DNA of 64,000 nt. It comes from Diadema antillarum (taxonomy: Eukaryota). The notes below the pieces were generated by a model, which was given only the letters and a program-made list of their open reading frames with translations, was not told the origin of the DNA and did not search any database. Position 1 is the first letter of the stretch. Each line of letters starts with the position of its first letter. A program made the position numbers and the translations under genes. Below are positions 38,301 to 58,000 of this stretch, piece by piece. Where the stretch lies: positions 1 to 64,000 of the forward strand of contig NW_027271005.1 in the NCBI RefSeq assembly GCF_040938485.1, read 5' to 3'.

Positions 38301-39273
38301 TTTTTATACCCCCGCCACACTTAGTGTGAAGGGGTATAGGAATCACCGTGATGTTGGTCAGGCGGTCGGTCACTCGGTCTGTTGCAAAATCTTTCGTCGC
38401 GAACTCCTTCTACAGTTTTGAAGCAATTTAAATGAAACTTAGGGTAAATGATGATATTGAAGTATAGATGTGCAAGACATGTTTTTTGTGTTTGTCGGAC
38501 AATGCGTTGCCATGGTAACCACAATTTTACCACAACCTTGTGGAGGGCACTACTTCCATAGTATTCAAGCAATCAATTTCAAAATTGATATCTATGATGA
38601 TCTATAGGTGTAGTTATGCAAGACACTCTTTGTGTTTGTACTTGACAAAGCGTTGCCATGGTAACTGCATGTTTTCTTCGAAATCCTGTGGAGTGAACTT
38701 CTTCCACAGTTTTCAAGCAATTGAAACCAAATTTGGTAGGCATTATGGCCCTGAGGTATAGATGTGGAACACATAATTTTTGTGTTTGTCACACAAACCG
38801 TTGCCATGGAACATCAATTTTACCAAAACCTTGCAGATCGAGTAACTTTTCCATCATTCAAGCAATTAAAGTCAAATTTAGTATGTATCATGATCTAGAA
38901 GTGTAGTTTTGCAAGACACCAATGTGTTATGAGGAAAATGTGTTGCCATGGTAACCACTCATTTTTGTATCAAAATAAACCATTCAAGCTATGAAGGTCA
39001 AATTTGGTGTGTATGATGGTCTTTAAGTATAGTTATGCAAAATGTCCCTTGTGTGTGTATCAGACAATGTGTTGCCATGGTAACTACACTTTTTACCCAA
39101 ACCTTGTGGAACTCGGTGTCAACTCTGTAATTGTACAGTAAACTAAAATTATTCTGTTTCCAATTCGACAAGTGCACAAACTTGGTATTAACGTCATTGC
39201 CCTCATGACATCACATACTATAAAGCAACACTAGGGGCGGGGGTATTAATCACCTTCAGTGATAATTCTAGTT
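38301..39273 (+). mobile_element. DINE-1/HINE-like element related to family B, with ~130-148-bp internal modules
   Basis: TTTTTATACCCCCGCC start; GGCGGGGGTAT 3' subTIR (39236-39246); stem-loop ATCAC-cttca-GTGAT; AATTCTAGTT end. Confidence 0.8.
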
Positions 39274-42117: not shown

Positions 42118-42306
42118 CTGTAAAAGTGGATATTTTGCTCGACGGGGTTAGAAGAGTTTCGTGTCTTTTAATTCTGCGGAATCAAAACGTCAACTACTGG
42201 AACATATGACAAGCAAAAATATTCGCGTGCTTTTATTTTCGCGCTAGTTTCTGGTTGCGCGAAATGCGCGAAAATTTCAACATCGTGAACATTTTCACTT
42301 TTACAG
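42118..42306. mobile_element. Short MITE (CTGTAAAAGT family), copy 1
   Basis: TA|CTGTAAAAGT ... ACTTTTACAG|TA; homologous to 54821-55029. Confidence 0.8.
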
Positions 42307-43149
42307 TAGTTTGTTTTGTTTGGGTTTGTTTTTGGTTTTTGGTTTTTGTTTTGTTTTTGTTTTTTGTTTTTTGAGGGGGGAGGGGTGGGTATTATTCACC
42401 TTGGGCCCTTACCCACATGTATACAGTACCTGTAATTATGTTCCAGTTCATTATTCCAAAGGTTTGTTAATCCTCCAAAAATGAAATAAGGTTTGTTATT
42501 CCCAATATTCATTGATCTGAAAATGAAAGAAGGTTTGTTTATATTCTGAAGATCCGTTAATACAAAAATGAAATCAGGTGCTTTTCATTCTGAAGGTTCA
42601 TTGGTAGGCCTACACACTGTCTTATATATTATATGCGGATTAACCTTTTGAACCATTTCATTTTCAGATTAATGAACTTTATTTCATTTTCAGATGAATT
42701 AATCTTAATTCTTTTTCAGACTAACAGACCTTCGGTATTAAAAGAACCATCGAAGTGACAAATTTTAATAATACCGTCCCGAATGTTTGAAAATAATGAA
42801 CCCTTTTACATTTTTGTTCTAATGAACCTCCATGGTATCCAGTTTTATATGGAATTTACTGCATGTTTTGGAATAACAAATCTTATTTCATTTTTCAGAT
42901 GAAGAAACTTTTGGAACAATGGATATCGATCACACATGTAATGTACGCATGTGAAAGACACACACGCAATTTGAATTATTTTTCATGATGTAAGTTCAAG
43001 GAGCAAGGGTTAAGCAAATACACGTTCCTCAGATCGCCCAAATTTTTAATTACTAGTAAAAATCTTGTTACCCGGTACTGTCACCGAACTAACTGTCCCC
43101 GAACTAACTGTCCCGTCCCTTTTTACTTTTATTTTAGCCTGTATTAAAA

Positions 43150-43422: not shown

Positions 43423-46400
43423 ATGACGAACGGTAAGAACTTGGTATCATTTGAAACTTAAGTCGTGGTACTGTGACTGTTCATATCCATTCGAAATTCC
43501 GACAGCTGATGATAATAATAGTCCCATTCGTTGATATAAATGATGGGTCGATTACTTTGATTCGGCCACAGTCTGATCCAGGACAGCTTACAGGGTTTCA
43601 ATTTGAATAGTCTCACATTAGGAGACTAGATCACGTCTAGAATTGTCTTGTGTAGACCTAGTAGACTGGATAGAATTCCATGCTCGTGTAGCATAACCTT
43701 GATTGAATTTGAACCTCATTCATCCGAGACCATGGCATTGCCATTGGCAGGCTAACGTTAGATAGCCATTGACCAGTGGCATTGCCAGCACGAGTAAAAA
43801 TAGCAGTGATCAAAGCTCTGTTCTATTTTAAATGTAAATTTAATACCCAATCTAACAAAGTGCCTGACCTTCATTGATTTTAGCATACTCATTTGATGGG
43901 CTCATCATCTTTGGACTGCTGGTGATTTGTACCTGCGCCTACATGAGGAGAGTGCCTCGCCTCAAGAAATGGTTCCTGTCAGAGAAGAAAGGATTCTTTG
44001 GAGTGTTTTACAAAGGTGGGATCTCACTTCCATGTGTGCTTCATGCAATGTATTTGAACATTATTTTTTTTTTCATTTTTGTTGTTCACCATTTGCATGA
44101 GACAAAACAAGTGAATAATAAAAACCAAACACTCAAACAAAATAAGCATAATACATAAATACAAGAAATTTGGCTTCCCCTAATGTACTGCCATAAGTTT
44201 GTGGGCAGGAAAAAAAAGCAATCAAAAATTACTATGCTTCTCGGGCCTTTCCAACCTACAGTCAACCTTACCTAGGTTGAATCTATTTGGACTGAAGAAA
44301 TAGCTTCGACTTAGAAAAAATTAAACTTACTTTAAAGGATTAAAATCAGTAGAATATGTAAAGAACAGGACTTGAAAAAAAGCTTGGACATTGGCAATTA
44401 TTCAACATATACAATTTCGACTTAAGCAAGGTTGACTGTACTTAAAGCACATCAGGGAATAGCTAAAACATTTTGAAAAATAATCATATATTTTATCTCG
44501 TAATGTACGGTAGAGAATTCAGCCATTGGCTGCGCATTAGCCATTGGCTGAATTTGCGTAATATGAGAGGCCGTTCCGCGCGCAATCGCCATCTTCGTTC
44601 CAGCGCAATGTTCGATCGCGAAGCGATTTTTATCTGACCGAAAAATCGGAAAATATCATCGAAATCTGCGGAAATACGGAACTGAATTCGTGCTCTCTTA
44701 CAAGCGTGATTATCGTTCTCAGCATGGATGAACCAGCTGACAAATCGGAGAAGGCAAAAGCCAAAAAAGATACCGAGCTGTGTGAGCCTAAGGCCAGCCC
44801 AGCTCCGGCAGCAAAGAAGAAGGCTGCAGGCAAAACTCTGTCTAGCGGCGGGAGGCCTAAGGCATCCCGCCCCGCGGCTTCGGGGAAGGCACAGCCGAAC
44901 CCGCCCGCACCAGCTGCTACCGCTCCCAACCCGACTGTGACTACAGCGGAAAATAGCACGGAGGTTATGTCCCGCATTGGGAAACTCGAGTCAATGTTCG
45001 AAAAAATGATCGAGACTTTGAGCACTCCTCATCATGGAGAACAACATGCAAATACGCCGCGGGATTGTTTTAGTGAATATGGCGACTGCGACACACAAAG
45101 GGGAAGCAGCTCACCACCCGTCATAGAATTGGCGGATAATCGCAGCGTGGCTGATTTCCTATCGGCAAACCGCGATGACGCGGTCAGCTTGTTTTCGGAC
45201 GTAGGCCTACAGGAGGCAGATAAAGACAAACGGCCAGAATTCAAGATACCACGAATGGCTCAGAAATTCGTGGCTCCGTCCGGGATAGGGGAACCACTAG
45301 ATGAGGATGTCGCGGACACCATTGTGTATATGATGGGACAAAAACTTGACCAGAAATCTCTCGACGAAGCAGCAACTCGCTACCCCTGCCCATCTAACTG
45401 CACATGTCTAGAAACCCCTAAAGTGAACAGCACTATCTGGGAGAACATCTCGACGGGGACGAGACACAGGGATCTGAAACTACAAGTGATCCAATCATCC
45501 CTCTTGAAAGGGATAAACGCGTTTGCTCGTACCCTTCCAGCAACTTTGTCTGAAGCTCAGCAGGATGCTATGGCTTTTCTCTGCGATGCAAACTTCTCCC
45601 TCAACTGCATGAGAAAGGACAGCATAAAGCCTGACATGAACTCAAATTTCCACCACCTGTGCAAGCCCTCTCACAAAGTGACAAAGTACTTGTTTGGAGA
45701 TGACCTGGGGCGTCAAGTGAAAGAGATCCAAGAACAAAGGAAAACAATGTCAGGCATGATGAAATCACGCTTCACACGAGAGCAATCACGGTTCCAGCCG
45801 TACAAGAAACCGGATGTGACATCTCGCCGTCAATACACGTCGACTGGGTTCACCCGCCCGTTGGGGAGGGGTTATGACCGCCGAACATCACATTCCAACC
45901 CCATGGCCGGTTCATCTGCACAGCCTTTTTTAGGGAAGGCTTGGAGGGGGAGACCTCGAGATCCTCCTCACACTTACACACCGACAGCAGCAAGGGAGGG
46001 TGGCAACAAGCAGCCAACCTACCACAGGCAGAGCCAAAGCCAGGGGAGGAAATAGAACAGGTAGGTGACTATGAACACAACATAGATAACGATCTAGTTA
46101 CAACACCAGCTGTCGTCGGAGGTCGTCTGAAGCCATTTTTCCCTGCTTGGGAAAATATCACGAGAGACTCACACATTATTCAAGCAGTTCAAGGCTATAC
46201 AATAGAATTTGACCCAGAAAAATTTCCCCCTTCTCGAGAAAAACCTCTGCGTTCTTACAAGCGGAATGCTGAAGAAACAGCCAAGATTGACCATGAGATT
46301 CTTGTTCTGGAAGAAAAACAGGTCATTGAAAAATGTGCCCATGAAGAAGGGGAATTTATTTCAGAGGTTTTCACGAGACCAAAAAAGAACGGAGGAGTTC

Positions 46401-49400
46401 GATTAATTCTTGACCTGTCCGAACTCAACAAAAGTGTTCAGTACCAACACTTTAAAATGGATAATATTCAATCTGGTATTCTACTCCTCTCAAAAGGGTG
46501 TTATATGGCTTCAGTAGACCTCCGTGATGCATACTACACAATTCCCATTCACTTAGACTCTCGTAAATATCTCCGCTTCGTATGGAGAAACCAATTGTGG
46601 CAGTTCAAAGCTTTGCCAAATGGCTTATCTTCCGCCCCAAGACTGTTCACCAAAATACTGAAACCAGTGCTTGCCTTACTAAGACAACAGGGGCACACAG
46701 TTTTGTCGTACTTGGACGACACACTGATAATTGGGAACAATAAAGCAGACACTCGCTCAGCAGTGCAAACCACCACTGACCTTTTGACTAGTCTAGGGTT
46801 CATTATTCACTCAGAGAAATCGGTACTTGAACCATCCCGTGAGATTGAATTTCTGGGTTTCCATTTAAATACATCTGAAATGAGAATCACCCTTCCAGCC
46901 AGTAAAAGCAATGACATTCAAGATGCATGTCGATCCTTACTTGCTAATAACAAACCTAGTATCCGGGAGGTAGCTAAAGTCATTGGGAAGATTGTGGCTG
47001 CCTTACCAGCATCTCAGTACGGCCCTTTGCATTACAGGCAGCTGGAAAGGGAAAAAATCAGAGCCCTGAGAAAACAGAAAGGACATTTCGATAGACATAT
47101 GAGCCTATCAAATAGAGCCAAGGCGGAACTAGTTTGGTGGTCATCCCATGCACATCTCGTGTCTAAACCCCTGTACCCAGGGAAAGTATCAAAAGAAATA
47201 AGAACAGATGCTAGTGGACAAGGTTGGGGTGCCACAGACCTGCAATCCAAGACAGGGGGTAGATGGAATGCTCAAGAATTAGCAAGAGCAGCAGGTAATG
47301 AAATAAACTATCTGGAAATGCTAGCAGCCGGTTTGGGACTCAAAAGCTTCTGTTCAAATGTCAGAGATGCACATATACTGTTGAGATTAGACAACACCAC
47401 AGCGGTGACATACTTGAATAACATGGGCGGCGTCAAGTCTGAAGCATGTAACGAAATGGCGTTGCAAATTTGGGATTGGTGCAGTAGACGACAAATTTGG
47501 ATAACAGCATCTCACTTAGCAGGCTCTAAGAACACAGAAGCTGATACGATGTCAAGGAAATTCAATGACAATATAGAATGGATGCTAGACAAGACAATAT
47601 TCAATGAGATAGTGCAGAGGTATGGGTTACCAAACGTAGACCTTTTTGCCACCAGACTGAATGCCCAGCTCCCAACATACGTCTCCTGGAGACCAGATCC
47701 AGGGGCATGGGCAGTAGACGCATTCACTATTGACTGGGGACCCCTAGTATTTTATGCGTTTCCCCCATTTAGCTTGGTTGCAAAGTGTCTCCAAAAAATC
47801 AGACAAGATGGCGCTAGGGGAATTTTGATAGTGCCAAATTGGCCAACACAGCCCTGGTATACCGTACTACGTAACATGCTATTGGAGGAGCCCTGGGTAT
47901 TGCGAAAACACCAGTTGTTAACCCAACCCATTACAGGTAGACCACATCCACTTACACATCTCTCCCTCTTATGTTGCAGGGTTGGAGCAAACATTTCATA
48001 GCTCAAGGACTGACGGAGGAGACTGCTGATATAATGGCAGCGTCTTGGAGGAAATCCACCAAGGAGCAGTATATGGTGTATATTAGGAAGTGGCAAAGGT
48101 TTTGTCATGAGCGTCACTTATGTTGGACCCATACGAAGTTGGGAAATTTGTTTGCGTTTTTTAATTCTATGTACAAAAATGGAGCAAGCTACAGCACCTT
48201 GAATACATCAAGGAGCGCACTAGCATCAGTTGTTCTTCTACGGGACGAAAAATACACCATTTCTACACATCCTTGGATTTGCCGGTACTTCAGGGGCATT
48301 TTTAATCTCCGACCACCCACTCCACGATACAGCTTCATATGGGATGTGGGCAAGGTGCTGAGCTACCTCAGACAAGTAACTCCAGCTCATAAGATTTCGC
48401 TGTGTCAACTGACACACAAAGTATGTTTTTTACTAGCGTTGACTTCTGCCCAAAGAGTGCAAACACTTTCATACCTAACCCTTGACAATGTGAAGGCGTC
48501 CAAAGATTGTGTGGAAATAGCAGTGGCTGATTTGATAAAGCAGAGTCAACCTGGGAATGTGGGAGTGAAAGTAACACTGAAAGCCTTTCCCGAGGATAAG
48601 AAACTCTGTGTTGTACACTATGTTAAAGAATACATTAACAGAACAAGCACATTGAGGAAGGAGGTGAATGCACTATTTGTCACCTACAAGCAACCCCATG
48701 GGAAGGCATCAAAGCAAACCATCGCTCGATGGATAAAAACTGTGTTGAGAGCATCAGGTATCGACACCAATCTCTTCAAAGCACATTCAACGAGATCGGC
48801 GGCAACCTCATCTGCCAAGAGGAATCATTTTCCAATAGCAGACATTCTCAAGCATGCTGGGTGGAAAAATGAATCCACGTTCAGGAATTTTTACCTGAAA
48901 CCGGCATCCCAGGCAACATCTTTTGGACAAGCAGTTCTGGGACAACAGACCTCTAGGAAGGGACAAGAGTCAGTCCTGTAAACATAGGTAAAGTTGCCCA
49001 AAAACTTTCTCTGACAGTATATTTCTGTGAAAAATGACTACTGTGAAAATCTTTGAAGTCTCATATTACGCAAATTCAGCCAATGGCTAATGCGCAGCCA
49101 ATGGCTGAATTCTCTACCGTACATTACGAGATAAAATAGAAAATTAAATGAAAAACATTGAAATTTAATTTGTATTTTATGAGTAATGGGAGGATAGAGA
49201 ATTCAGCACCCTCCGCTCCCTCCCTTACTCTGAACAGCCTTAAATGTGGCTTATACAAGATCTATTTTATCTCGAAATATTTTTTCACAGTAGTCATCAG
49301 CTTTTAAAGATGGCGATTGCGCGCGGAACGGCCTCTCATATTACGCAAATTCAGCCAATGGCTAATGCGCAGCCAATGGCTGAATTCTCTATCCTCCCAT

Positions 49401-50343
49401 TACTCATAAAATACAAATTAAATTTCAATGTTTTTCATTTAATTTTCTATCATAACGTACATCAATACGACAGTTGTAATAATTTCAATCATTTTAATAA
49501 CAATGCCAATGTTGTATATTCAACAATGCAAATATAATTTTGATGTTGTAGTATTTAGCTGTGTGAGAGTTTCAATATTGTGAATGAGAAATACAGTCTC
49601 TTGGAACCCGCAGTGTTATTGAGGAGTAGTAGTAAAATGTTGGAGCTGTGGAGATGTACACAAGTGAATACAGCGTTCAAACAGTTTAATGAATGAAAAG
49701 CTTTTGTTGGACATAGTAAGTGTTCTGGCTCAGAGGACAAGACCACAGGCTATCAATCAGGAAGTCACTGGTTCAGGTCTCTTTCTGACTGCAGCTGTTG
49801 TGCCCCAGGCAAGGCACTTTATCCTGATTACCTAGTCCTTCTATTGGAACTGAAAGCCCATTGTTGATTTCTGAATCGGCATTCAGTGCTTGCTTTCCAG
49901 GCATATAAAACTACTCAAGTGATCATAATTTTTCAAATTCATGAAATTCTTCCATCGAGATGTTTTTTATTGCAACTGATTGACAAATTGCCCTACATTG
50001 ACGTAAAGTGCTTATTTATGTCGATTTAGGGCAATTTGTCAATCAGTTGCAATAATCATAATTCTGTTCATATCTTTTTTTTTTAATGCAGTTTGACAAA
50101 TCAAATTGGTACTCTTTATATTGTGCTCCTACTCACATATTTAGTCACTCCCCCACTGTCACCCGTATCCATGAATCAATTAATAAATCTTACAAAAGAA
50201 AGAGCATAACTAGGTTAAACTGTGCTGATCTCTTTTCTCTTTGTGTCTCTGGTGCTGCAGCTTCAATCATTGGGACCAGGCTCCATATATTCACAGCTCT
50301 GAGTTGCATCTTCATGGCAGTCTACATCATGTTCCTGAAATGA
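43423..50343 (+). CDS. TMEM167B: Protein kish-B, 74 aa; exons 43423-43432, 43884-44015, 50261-50343
   Basis: The spliced product [74 protein letters not shown] matches kish-B; GT..AG introns in phase 1. Confidence 0.95.
44706..46055 (+). CDS. DIRS ORF1 (gag-like)
   Basis: 449-codon open frame in the ORF1 position, with CP.NC..L..PKVN..IW and D.KL..IQ..L.KG motifs typical of DIRS ORF1. Confidence 0.85.
   Translation: MIIVLSMDEPADKSEKAKAKKDTELCEPKASPAPAAKKKAAGKTLSSGGRPKASRPAASGKAQPNPPAPAATAPNPTVTTAENSTEVMSRIGKLESMFEKMIETLSTPHHGEQHANTPRDCFSEYGDCDTQRGSSSPPVIELADNRSVADFLSANRDDAVSLFSDVGLQEADKDKRPEFKIPRMAQKFVAPSGIGEPLDEDVADTIVYMMGQKLDQKSLDEAATRYPCPSNCTCLETPKVNSTIWENISTGTRHRDLKLQVIQSSLLKGINAFARTLPATLSEAQQDAMAFLCDANFSLNCMRKDSIKPDMNSNFHHLCKPSHKVTKYLFGDDLGRQVKEIQEQRKTMSGMMKSRFTREQSRFQPYKKPDVTSRRQYTSTGFTRPLGRGYDRRTSHSNPMAGSSAQPFLGKAWRGRPRDPPHTYTPTAAREGGNKQPTYHRQSQSQGRK
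45926..48001 (+). CDS. DIRS ORF2: reverse transcriptase, RNase H and Dam-like methyltransferase domain; in the -1 frame relative to ORF1
   Basis: RT: RLILDL, DLRDAY, LPNGLSSAPRLFTK, YLDD. RNase H: RTDAS.QGWGA, INYLEMLA, LDNTTAV, EADTMSR. Methyltransferase-like: DLFAT..N, YAFPPF, ILIVPNWP. Confidence 0.95.
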   Translation, partial: FFREGLEGETSRSSSHLHTDSSKGGWQQAANLPQAEPKPGEEIEQVGDYEHNIDNDLVTTPAVVGGRLKPFFPAWENITRDSHIIQAVQGYTIEFDPEKFPPSREKPLRSYKRNAEETAKIDHEILVLEEKQVIEKCAHEEGEFISEVFTRPKKNGGVRLILDLSELNKSVQYQHFKMDNIQSGILLLSKGCYMASVDLRDAYYTIPIHLDSRKYLRFVWRNQLWQFKALPNGLSSAPRLFTKILKPVLALLRQQGHTVLSYLDDTLIIGNNKADTRSAVQTTTDLLTSLGFIIHSEKSVLEPSREIEFLGFHLNTSEMRITLPASKSNDIQDACRSLLANNKPSIREVAKVIGKIVAALPASQYGPLHYRQLEREKIRALRKQKGHFDRHMSLSNRAKAELVWWSSHAHLVSKPLYPGKVSKEIRTDASGQGWGATDLQSKTGGRWNAQELARAAGNEINYLEMLAAGLGLKSFCSNVRDAHILLRLDNTTAVTYLNNMGGVKSEACNEMALQIWDWCSRRQIWITASHLAGSKNTEADTMSRKFNDNIEWMLDKTIFNEIVQRYGLPNVDLFATRLNAQLPTYVSWRPDPGAWAVDAFTIDWGPLVFYAFPPFSLVAKCLQKIRQDGARGILIVPNWPTQPWYTVLRNMLLEEPWVLRKHQLLTQPITGRPHPLTHLSLLCCRVGANIS
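47971..48981 (+). CDS. DIRS ORF3 tyrosine recombinase (SAM-like N-domain plus catalytic domain)
   Basis: Catalytic residues in SAQRVQTL (R), AHSTRSA (HxxR), HAGW and TFRNFY (Y). Confidence 0.95.
   Translation: MLQGWSKHFIAQGLTEETADIMAASWRKSTKEQYMVYIRKWQRFCHERHLCWTHTKLGNLFAFFNSMYKNGASYSTLNTSRSALASVVLLRDEKYTISTHPWICRYFRGIFNLRPPTPRYSFIWDVGKVLSYLRQVTPAHKISLCQLTHKVCFLLALTSAQRVQTLSYLTLDNVKASKDCVEIAVADLIKQSQPGNVGVKVTLKAFPEDKKLCVVHYVKEYINRTSTLRKEVNALFVTYKQPHGKASKQTIARWIKTVLRASGIDTNLFKAHSTRSAATSSAKRNHFPIADILKHAGWKNESTFRNFYLKPASQATSFGQAVLGQQTSRKGQESVL
49967..50055. repeat. Hairpin MITE with a perfect 29-bp stem and 31-nt loop
   Basis: TTATTGCAACTGATTGACAAATTGCCCTA / TAGGGCAATTTGTCAATCAGTTGCAATAA; diverged arms of a relative lie at ~18885-18930 and ~19050-19080. 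Confidence 0.8.
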
Positions 50344-54820: not shown

Positions 54821-55029
54821 CTGTAAAAGTGGATATTTTTCTGCGACTAATTTTTCACGTTTGGCCATGTAAGAAGAGTTTTACGTGTTTTTAATTCCGC
54901 GGAATCAAGACATCAGCTACTGGAACATGTGGCATGTAAAAATATTTGCATGCTTTTATTTTCGTGTTAGCTTCTGGTTGCGCGAAATGCGCAAAAATTA
55001 CAACACCACAAAAGTTTCTACTTTTACAG
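54821..55029. mobile_element. Short MITE (CTGTAAAAGT family), copy 2
   Basis: CTGTAAAAGTGGATATTTT ... ACTTTTACAG|TA; internal sequence similar to 42118-42306. Confidence 0.8.
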
Positions 55030-58000
55030 TATACAGTTTTTGTAATGAAAATGTTGTTAAGCAGTTCAACTCACATGCGTGCACACACACAAACACACAC
55101 TGGTACATGCAATCACCTACAAATAAGAGAGTCAAGCACAATTTACTCAGAAACAAGAATCTTCACATATTTTTCTTTGAGTGTCAATTCAATTGTATCA
55201 GTTGTTTATTTATCTACTATATAATACAATGTTGTCAAAACCAATATGGTTTCAAACATTTACTACCAAATCTTGCTCTTTTTTTTTCCAATACATACAC
55301 ACCAACAATATAAAACTTCATTTCAAACTCCTCTGCTCATCATATCTTTGTACACTGTGTACATCATTGATCAAGTAGTCATTCCTACGATACAGCAGGC
55401 TCACGTGATAAAAGAGGCAGCAACAGGTTTATTTTCCTTATCAGCAATTTGACAGTGAGGTAAAAAGACCTCCCTTTTCACAACTCATTTCTCTCCCCCC
55501 CCCCCAAAAAAAAAAAAAAAAAAATAATAATAATAATAATACATCTTAAATTCTTTTCTGAGCTCAAGAGAACACAAATTTAAGAATGATACCTGTCTTC
55601 TGTATATTTTGGGTGAGAAATATTTCTGCAGTCATCCTCTACAATGCTAACAGTTCCTTTCTCTCATTCGATTATATGTTCTCTTGCGAGCTTGGGCGAT
55701 TCACTAAAATCACCTTAGTTAATGCTTGAGATTTGGGTTCCAACCTTGTGCTTGTGGCCGCTATGCTTTCAACCATATTACATTTTACAAACTCTTATTT
55801 TTATGCAAAATTTGCTTATGAAAAGAGACTGACAAGGGTAAAAAACAAAAAACAAACAAACAAACAAACATAATGCAAAACAGTGGCAAAACTAACACTG
55901 ACTTTGAAATTGTACTCATCTATGGGAATGCTCAATAACCAGAGAGAACATTCTACCTCACTGCTGGGTCTCATTCTTCTGAAAAAAAAAAAAAAAAATC
56001 ACTAAATCTTCAAAAAGGCCTGAAAAATGACAAAAGTAGACATTTCAGAAGAATGGTCTTTCACAAGTATCACATGTGGCACTAAAAAACAAAAATCACA
56101 TGCAGCTTAGGTACATTGTATATTCCTCTTGGCCTGTGTTAAAATCAAGGCAGCAAATGGCAAATGAGCAGTGGGCACAATAAATCCTTGGCATAGTGAC
56201 TAAGCACAGCCTACAGTCTTGTTCTAGCCAATTATAGAAAGTGCTTCAAGTACTGCAATTTTCTTCCTCCAATTTATAATTGACATGTAATTGTTTATTC
56301 CTTTTACTCACTCCTACATTAGGAATCTCCTTACCATTTTGAAGTGGGCGAAAAAAAAAAGGCCCTATATATATATATGTACGCCAAAAATGCAAACAGA
56401 GCAATCACTTCTAATTCATTCCCCTTCCCGACTAAAAAATTATAATCATAAAAGAGATAACACTCAAATAAAACTGAAGGAATAAAAACATATCAAACGG
56501 CACTGCTCTGTAAAAATGACCAGTAAAAAGCACTGTAGTGCCAATCACAGCAAGTACATGTATTTCTCCTTCTAATGTCAGTCTGATCTGGTTTTGCTGA
56601 GGTAGCACACACAACATGCCAGGTGAGTTCTCCACATTGCTGAATATGAACAGTAAAGTTTGGATGTAATGTCAGATCGACAGCAGTCTTTGACTGAATA
56701 GAATTCAAGCGCCAGTGGACTGAGTTCGCATCAAAAGCACTGCCAATCTTTTATGCACTTTAAAAAATTTGTAAAATGTGAAAAACGAGGGAAAAGTGTA
56801 CAAAGTGTGGGCACCATCAATCAGATGATCGAGTCACATCATATTTAGTTACAAACACTTCATTTCATATTATCCTAAACACTTCATGATGTTAATGGTG
56901 ACACCAATTTCCACTGTTGGTACTCTGTCATTTCGATCTGTTTTCAAAGAGCTGCCTTGCCATTTCAGCAACATCATTTACAGAACACAGCCAATTATCA
57001 CAACGGTCATGATCTTTTTACACACAGAGAGAATGAAAATATTTCTTTGTAAACAATTGGTATGGCACCAGGAAAACCAAACGCAACTATAAATCACATC
57101 ATATCGATTGCTATGTACACACAGAGTAAAAGCTCGACAGACACTACAAAATACCCGGCTCAGATTATCACTTACGCTTACCGGTAAGTTTTCTCAATGG
57201 ATTTGGAAGGGAAATGTACAAGAAATATACAGCTGCAGCACTATCTTGCTTCAAAAATGCCTTTTAAGTCATCTCCTGTGTTTTTAAAGACAGTAATAAT
57301 CAAAATATTCAATCAAAATGCAATTTCATTTGCAGACACAGACATATAGGAGCAAAACCACCTACGAAATGAGCTCTGTACTAAAATGTCCAACCCAAGT
57401 AAAGATGTCATTAGTCTGTAGACAGGCAAACAGCTCCATCCTGTGATTTGATGAGTAAAAGTCTGGTACTCGTGACGAGCACCTTCAAAGTCCACAGAGA
57501 CGCTTAAGATGAGTTTGTCTCTTCACACATGATGACATCGACACTATCAGTCACATCAACAGCTCTGCAATATCCATCTCTTCTTCCCTTTCCATCACTT
57601 TCAAAGCTTTGACGTGCCATCTTGATGTTCAAACTTTATTCAACTAGAATACTGCACACACCTCTGGTTGAATTCTCCAAGCAATACTAACACATGCAGA
57701 GTCCAAACTTCAAGGATGATCTGTACACTGTAATACATAATCTTTCTTCACATAGCACATAATTTCAACCCATCACACTTGATAAAACAACTTCTCTGCA
57801 ATATAAAGAAGACTTAATTAGAAAGAAAAGGGTTCATTAAGACAACAATACTCTTGACAAAATTTGGCATTGAGGACTTATAAAACGAGTGCAGAAAATT
57901 GATGTGCTCTAAGAAAAATATATTTACATTGCTTTATTCCCTGAACAAATGGTATTGCCTTAATAAAAAACATCATAGTGGGGAAAAGCAGAAAATTAGC

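Follow-up and report, generated by a model that had tools for sequence, protein, structure and literature searches.

A conserved slippery heptamer and a spliced joint in the same −1 frame suggest how pol and recombinase may be expressed in a DIRS1-like element of Diadema antillarum

How the second and third genes of a DIRS1-like element are translated is the question raised by a 64,000-nt stretch of Diadema antillarum DNA (contig NW_027271005.1, positions 1 to 64,000; hereafter the window). In the portions of the papers on Dictyostelium DIRS-1 used here (PMC3266345, PMC7192593, PMC3950715), one 4.5-kb mRNA with three overlapping ORFs is described, and no route of translation is given for them. 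The window contains an element of this kind in which gag, pol and tyrosine recombinase are intact (Table 1; Pfam RVT_1, E 5.4e-23; Phage_integrase, E 1.8e-11). ORF2, which measures 707 codons from stop to stop, lies in the −1 frame relative to ORF1 (45878-48001 against the ATG at 44724), and its first ATG, at 46457, is found 114 codons inside RT, where Pfam RVT_1 spans ORF2 residues 168-330. On both of these points a preceding sequence-only reading of the window was correct.

The window element is a member of the DIRS1-like group. Inverted terminal repeats and an internal complementary region with a three-base circular junction are present, and the ATT start and AAT junction are the same as in the table of PMC3266345, in the part used here. 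With Dictyostelium DIRS-1 it shares gag, a pol with RT and probable RNase H and methyltransferase domains, the tyrosine recombinase, and both the inverted termini and the internal complementary region; it departs from the published descriptions of that element in the shortness of the overlap between pol and recombinase, in the conserved slippery site and in the intron. The pieces of the window pol that resemble RT_RNaseH (E 0.01) and Dam (E 0.029) both score below the Pfam cut-offs, and Dam scores above its cut-off in the matching region of a relative (L070, E 6.4e-07). Searches with the RNase H/methyltransferase region gave no PHROG match and no clear PDB match. The Gag of ORF1 (443 aa) matched no Pfam family; 27 homologues were found, and an identical protein is labelled Diadema antillarum. 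The family is young, with at least 25 full-length genomic matches that are 99.5-100% identical over 601 nt among the matches listed. No relative was found in the viral contigs searched.

The Diadema genome holds at least 16 DIRS families, several of which occur in many almost identical copies whose pol frames stay open over long distances, and this points to recent activity of several lineages at once. In one locus (L080, contig C253), a one-base insertion near the pol end fuses pol and recombinase into a single 1034-codon ORF; contig C2109 probably shares this type of fusion, which may be a variant or an assembly error. The window has other repeats as well. At 38371-39110 a ~146-nt unit containing GTTGCCATGGTAAC, which we take to be an RFX-box-like motif, is arrayed about five times in diverged form, and positions 42166-42317 and 54889-55040 are 82% identical copies of a MITE-like 152-nt repeat with short inverted arms nearby.

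Table 1. Features of the DIRS1-like element, in window coordinates (a slash within a sequence marks the splice point).
Feature	Position	Strand	Basis
DIRS1-like element, whole, ORFs intact	44490..49450	+	ends set by aligning other copies
Left terminus/inverted terminal repeat, starting with ATT	44490..44595	+	inverted pairs I1, I2; copy alignment
ORF1, Gag-like, 443 aa; ATG at 44724, stop at 46053-46055	44724..46055	+	ORF list
ORF2, pol (RT, RNase H-like, Dam-like methyltransferase); −1 frame; first ATG at 46457	45878..48001	+	
Slippery heptamer U UUU UUA in the gag frame, predicted −1 frameshift site	45926..45932	+	
43 codons of the −1 frame, predicted to be common to Gag-Pol and Gag-recombinase	45932..46060	+	lengths; RNA joint
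Possible stimulatory hairpin, unsupported	45943..45967	+	z 0.19, 0.08
5' splice site CAG/GTAGGT, 5 nt past the gag stop, phase 0 in the −1 frame	46058..46066	+	RNA joint
Intron, GT..AG, 1919 nt; its excision takes out RT, RNase H and almost the entire methyltransferase domain	46061..47979	+	RNA reads
Polypyrimidine tract and 3' splice site TTGCAG/G, phase 0 in the recombinase frame	47951..47980	+	RNA joint
ORF3 exon, tyrosine recombinase, 333 codons	47980..48981	+	Pfam Phage_integrase E 1.8e-11
Internal complementary region; junction AAT at ~49135-49137	49059..49207	+	inverted pairs I2, I3
Right terminus, inverted repeat plus extension	49307..49450	+	inverted pairs; copy alignment

To find how ribosomes might reach pol, we read out the frames around the gag/pol overlap. 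The gag frame reads CAG CCT TTT TTA GGG AAG, which places T TTT TTA in gag phase as claimed by the sequence-only reading, and the −1 frame, entered by a slip at this site, would read F-F-R-E-G-L and does stay open. In HIV-1, U UUU UUA GGG is followed by AAG, and other retroviruses such as MMTV and HTLV use A AAA AAC as the shift site and gain access to a third ORF by shifting frame a second time. A 13-nt match to the HIV-1 site had been pointed out; the match of the heptamer holds, and the longer likeness is a coincidence, since GGG comes next in only 4 of the 22 family representatives with U UUU UUA (U6A) described below. Beyond the heptamer itself, the window element resembles HIV-1 in the phase of the site near the end of gag, in a pol that lies in −1 without a start of its own, and in the G-rich codon that comes next. 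It differs in having no significant stem, no protease and no DDE integrase, in having relatives that swap the heptamer to A AAA AAC (A6C), and in a recombinase that is reached via an intron that removes pol. The A6C heptamer of the other retroviruses is present in nine related DIRS families, some of which have the gag stop directly behind it; unlike in those viruses, the third ORF of the window element is reached by splicing. The HIV-1 gag-pol site is described as U UUU UUA GGG with a stem-loop (PMC4373837, in the part used here), and a frameshifting review (PMC5009743, in the portion used here) ranks A_AAA_AAC with the shiftiest heptamers of eukaryotes and gives U_UUU_UUA as that of HIV. It is very likely that the window element works like the retroviral gag-pol −1 frameshift.

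Whether the heptamer is conserved among related DIRS, the check proposed along with the frameshift, was determined in 121 loci. Besides the window, these were 40 stretches from the Diadema genome and, from metagenomes, the best 80 of 171 matches to an RT alignment. One locus had no RT match, and 45 were left out, 11 of them for want of an RT start in one ORF and 34 for want of a recognised gag ORF overlapping pol; the latter are truncated, broken, or of a second architecture with pol in +1. The remaining 75 loci formed 37 RT clusters (<80% identity), of which 12 come from the Diadema genome and the other 25 from metagenomes. In RT they are 40-100% identical to the window, and a representative of each was picked by gag score. 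Pol is in −1 in 71 of the 75 loci and in all 37 representatives, and the four exceptions are broken copies from clusters that are otherwise in −1. Within the gag/pol overlap, 30 of the 37 representatives have U6A (22) or A6C (8) in gag phase, the families being related by descent and their counts therefore not independent. A ninth A6C cluster has the heptamer in its non-representative members. By comparison, the other two phases of the overlap contained 1 and 0 such heptamers, 1000 shuffles gave a mean of 0.38 and a maximum of 3 in phase, and the upstream gag background was 3 in 13,477 codons. The −1 frame frequently opens just 3-15 nt upstream of the heptamer.

In a quick RT tree, U6A and A6C are interspersed, with five changes each, at least two of them forced by well-supported branches. 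This interchange argues that the slippery pattern, and not the peptide, has been kept. Judged from the counts (30/37 against 0.38 in shuffles) and from the interchange, the heptamer appears to be conserved beyond the needs of the peptide. In the window family, heptamer and splice donor are both kept in 29 of 30 copies. The proposal that a Gag-Pol fusion is made by −1 frameshifting at U UUU UUA thus passed its conservation test across 37 families, and we consider it very probably correct. Among the remaining families, two have other heptamers, possibly by chance (C CCA AAC and G GGU UUU), and four have no canonical heptamer in the overlap. Five loci (L116, L117, L145, L172 and L130) have pol in −1 and no canonical heptamer; L145 and L130 both have GGG TTT CGC in the gag frame. 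Fifteen loci fetched later, assigned by eye, gave four new families and one copy of a known family. Three of the new families fit the model fully. The fourth, from the Diadema genome (L185, L186 and L192), has A6C before the gag stop, yet pol is in +1, and a stop follows seven codons into the −1 frame in all three copies seen. The same three loci carry a donor in the −1 frame, and either a shared lesion or an unusual −2 shift may be involved.

A GGAGG/CCTCC stem had also been proposed to stimulate the shift. The hairpin, separated from the heptamer by a 10-nt spacer, does form in the minimum-energy fold (−13.6 kcal/mol); it is missing from the 43-nt centroid fold, and folding was no better than that of shuffles (z = 0.19 and 0.08), which leaves the stem unsupported as a stimulator. 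Across 31 families, the 60 nt downstream of the heptamer gave a mean z of −0.68, with 4 of 31 below −2, a weak shift compared with three control windows (mean z −0.03 to −0.33).

We then looked for a route to the recombinase. A splice just after the gag stop, overlooked by the sequence-only reading, joins the same −1 frame to the recombinase. Both the donor after the gag stop and the acceptor at the recombinase start were predicted by sequence inspection before the reads were examined, and poly(A) reads of run X12 contained the joint 46060/47980 in four reads with three starts. The joint was absent from RNA runs X10 and X11 (49 and 114 reads) and from contig run X4; the reads aligned per RNA run numbered 49, 114 and 384, about 12% of each run was read, and the runs come from individuals other than the assembled one. 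Genomic copies without the intron were not found among the matches listed (42 + 42; 40 of 73 and 40 of 98 candidates scored). As a test for a U2-type intron, the GT..AG joint was found in RNA and not in DNA. The joint connects the −1 frame to the recombinase frame in phase 0 on both sides, and the first ATG of the recombinase (47971) lies inside the intron and is lost on splicing. Read depth shows no fall right after the donor. Since ribosomes in the gag frame stop before the donor, it would be read through by shifted ribosomes only. A spliced mRNA with an AUG for ORF2, which the sequence-only reading had named as the opposing outcome, was not listed among the reads at their low depth.

Putative splice sites of this kind are widespread in the related families. 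By donor and acceptor scores that are crude and self-made, at sites related by descent, the interval from the gag stop to RT contains a strong donor in 34 of 37 families, compared with 2 of 37 for control stretches, the donor is in phase 0 of the −1 frame in 31 of 37, and the best acceptor is in phase 0 in 23 of the 25 families with an intact pol/recombinase overlap. In four of the other six families, a phase-0 GT lies four bases upstream. Tandem donors four bases apart (GTAG GT), the upstream one in phase 0, occur in the window (46061-46066) and in L104, L108, L119 and L132. The recombinase ORF has no Met up to domain residue 25 in 11 of the 25 families.

These sites would fit a scheme in which one promoter gives two RNAs and three proteins. 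Ribosomes would start at AUG 44724, and most would stop at 46053 to give Gag (443 aa) from both RNAs. A minority would slip −1 at the heptamer (F-L-R or F-F-R) and read 43 codons through past the gag stop. On the unspliced RNA, the slipped ribosomes would go on into RT-RNase H-methyltransferase and make a Gag-Pol of ~1092 aa, and on the spliced RNA they would go on into the recombinase and make a Gag-recombinase of ~779 aa. The two fusions would have 43 transframe residues in common, and both enzymes would be kept below Gag in amount and tethered to Gag for packaging. That the same slip also serves the recombinase is likely, and the full model, in which one −1 frameshift yields both Gag-Pol and Gag-recombinase as Gag fusions, is in our judgement probable.

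The frameshift might serve Gag-Pol only, with the recombinase made from the spliced RNA by another route, such as reinitiation at AUG 48034 once ribosomes have ended gag, or an internal promoter. This AUG does lie 54 nt past the joint, and depth in run X12 is ~26-31 over 48017-48370 against ~13-17 over much of gag. However, the higher depth over the recombinase is explicable by poly(A) 3' bias, a Met near the recombinase start is lacking in 11 of 25 families, and reinitiation needs no phase match, yet the donor in 31/37 and the acceptor in 23/25 families match the −1 frame; we regard this explanation as unlikely. Transcriptional slippage, by which RNA polymerase would add a base at T6 or A6 and the transcripts would then be translated normally into pol, is suggested by the six-base homopolymer in both heptamers, by a seventh base in some broken genomic copies (L030, L067 and L078) and by L158, which has gag and pol in one frame. 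Slippage needs no fixed codon phase, whereas the X XXY YYZ phase holds 30 of the sites and the two alternative phases hold 1 and 0. The base behind the homopolymer is also fixed, T6 being followed by A and A6 by C. At a depth of ~16 the reads listed no indel at the heptamer, a result with which a rate of a few percent is still compatible. Taken together, slippage of the polymerase is quite improbable.

The T run with its AG could also be read as a 3' splice acceptor, TTTTTTAG/G, with an upstream exon giving an AUG to pol and recombinase and no frameshift at all. In a crude scan it was the sole acceptor-like match in the element, and AG follows the T run in 21 of the 22 U6A representatives. The nine A AAA AAC families, however, have neither a pyrimidine tract nor an AG, the sequence is TTTTTTAT in 5 of the 6 loci of one U6A family, and the true acceptors combine CAG with a tract in which C and T are mixed. 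The reads listed no joint at 45933/45934, and run X12 shows flat depth across the site (~17 against 16), which is still compatible with a minor junction. Because AG is absent and splicing there is impossible in 10 of 31 families, and because no RNA joint was listed at the site (depth ~16), the acceptor was rejected, and we give this reading very little credence. It is just as hard to believe that ribosomes start pol internally or at a non-AUG codon, or that they enter the recombinase through a second −1 frameshift at the pol end, with the heptamer kept as part of a conserved PFLG peptide. FL is indeed common in Gag tails (114 of 138 homologues against 13 in control stretches), a count that is biased because the search profile was made from FL-bearing proteins and 32 of 170 Gag proteins were omitted. 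In 23 of 25 families, the recombinase frame is −1 to that of pol. Against a peptide, every one of the 22 U6A representatives encodes F-L as TTT TTA preceded by one more T, and K-N takes its place where A6C is used. As for a second frameshift into the recombinase, it was rejected on the finding that only 5 of 25 pol/recombinase overlaps have any heptamer, of four kinds, and the window overlap has none.

The second architecture, with pol in +1, is seen in ten metagenome loci of seven families (L152, L154, L159-L163, L168, L176 and L179). In all ten, a long gag-frame ORF crosses RT, and in the seven loci where it is unbroken (1085-1427 aa) it includes the recombinase. The motif CCC TTT CGN is present inside the overlap in the frame of the long ORF in 10 of 10 loci and in none in the other frames. 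The +1 families form one clade (support 98, quick tree) nested among −1 families and sister to the families in which A6C is followed by the gag stop, and inverted termini were seen in three of the four +1 loci checked. An eleventh locus, L157, is broken and has no CCC TTT CGN motif. UUU_CGN is the +1 frameshift motif of plant amalgaviruses according to the part of PMC5052127 used here, and the sister DIRS clade has the same motif as CCC UUU CGN, with pol in +1. Unlike in amalgaviruses, the DIRS motif sits in retrotransposons with gag and recombinase as one long ORF, and it is not in the window. Each enzyme would be fused to Gag in either layout, and this supports recoding as the general solution. 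We lean slightly towards a broader view, in which a frameshift stands upstream of an alternative splice, the slip setting the enzyme-to-Gag ratio and the splice picking the enzyme (RT or recombinase), while at the shift site U UUU UUA and A AAA AAC would have replaced each other several times, with a single change to +1 CCC UUU CGN as gag and recombinase merged. This would be an expression logic hitherto undescribed for DIRS1-like elements.

A proposal of programmed frameshifting or splicing in DIRS elements was not found in the literature searched; the Goodwin and Poulter papers, the Poulter and Butler 2015 review, the PAT paper and Repbase reports lie outside that search and may mention either. 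Neither is proposed in the portions used here of PMC3266345, PMC6681497, PMC7192593, PMC3950715, PMC4157794, PMC8547959, PMC3783388, PMC12440569 and PMC9341512. The supplement of PMC3266345 does not mention a frameshift, splice or intron, and DIRS is absent from the first 300,000 of the 449,034 characters of the frameshifting review PMC5009743.

If true, the model would explain how the overlapping DIRS genes are expressed, an overlap that DIRS papers, in the portions used here, describe without a route of translation. It can be tested at exact coordinates, which are given for the 7-base site, for the transframe peptide of 43 codons, for the intron and for the three proteins that are predicted. 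Annotation would be corrected as well, because pol and recombinase models begun at internal AUGs would be truncated, and the DIRS families would serve as a ready-made set of shift sites of both the −1 and the +1 type. More broadly, gag-pol frameshifting would be extended to a retrotransposon order that has neither protease nor DDE integrase, and a design with frameshifting and splicing in series would be added.
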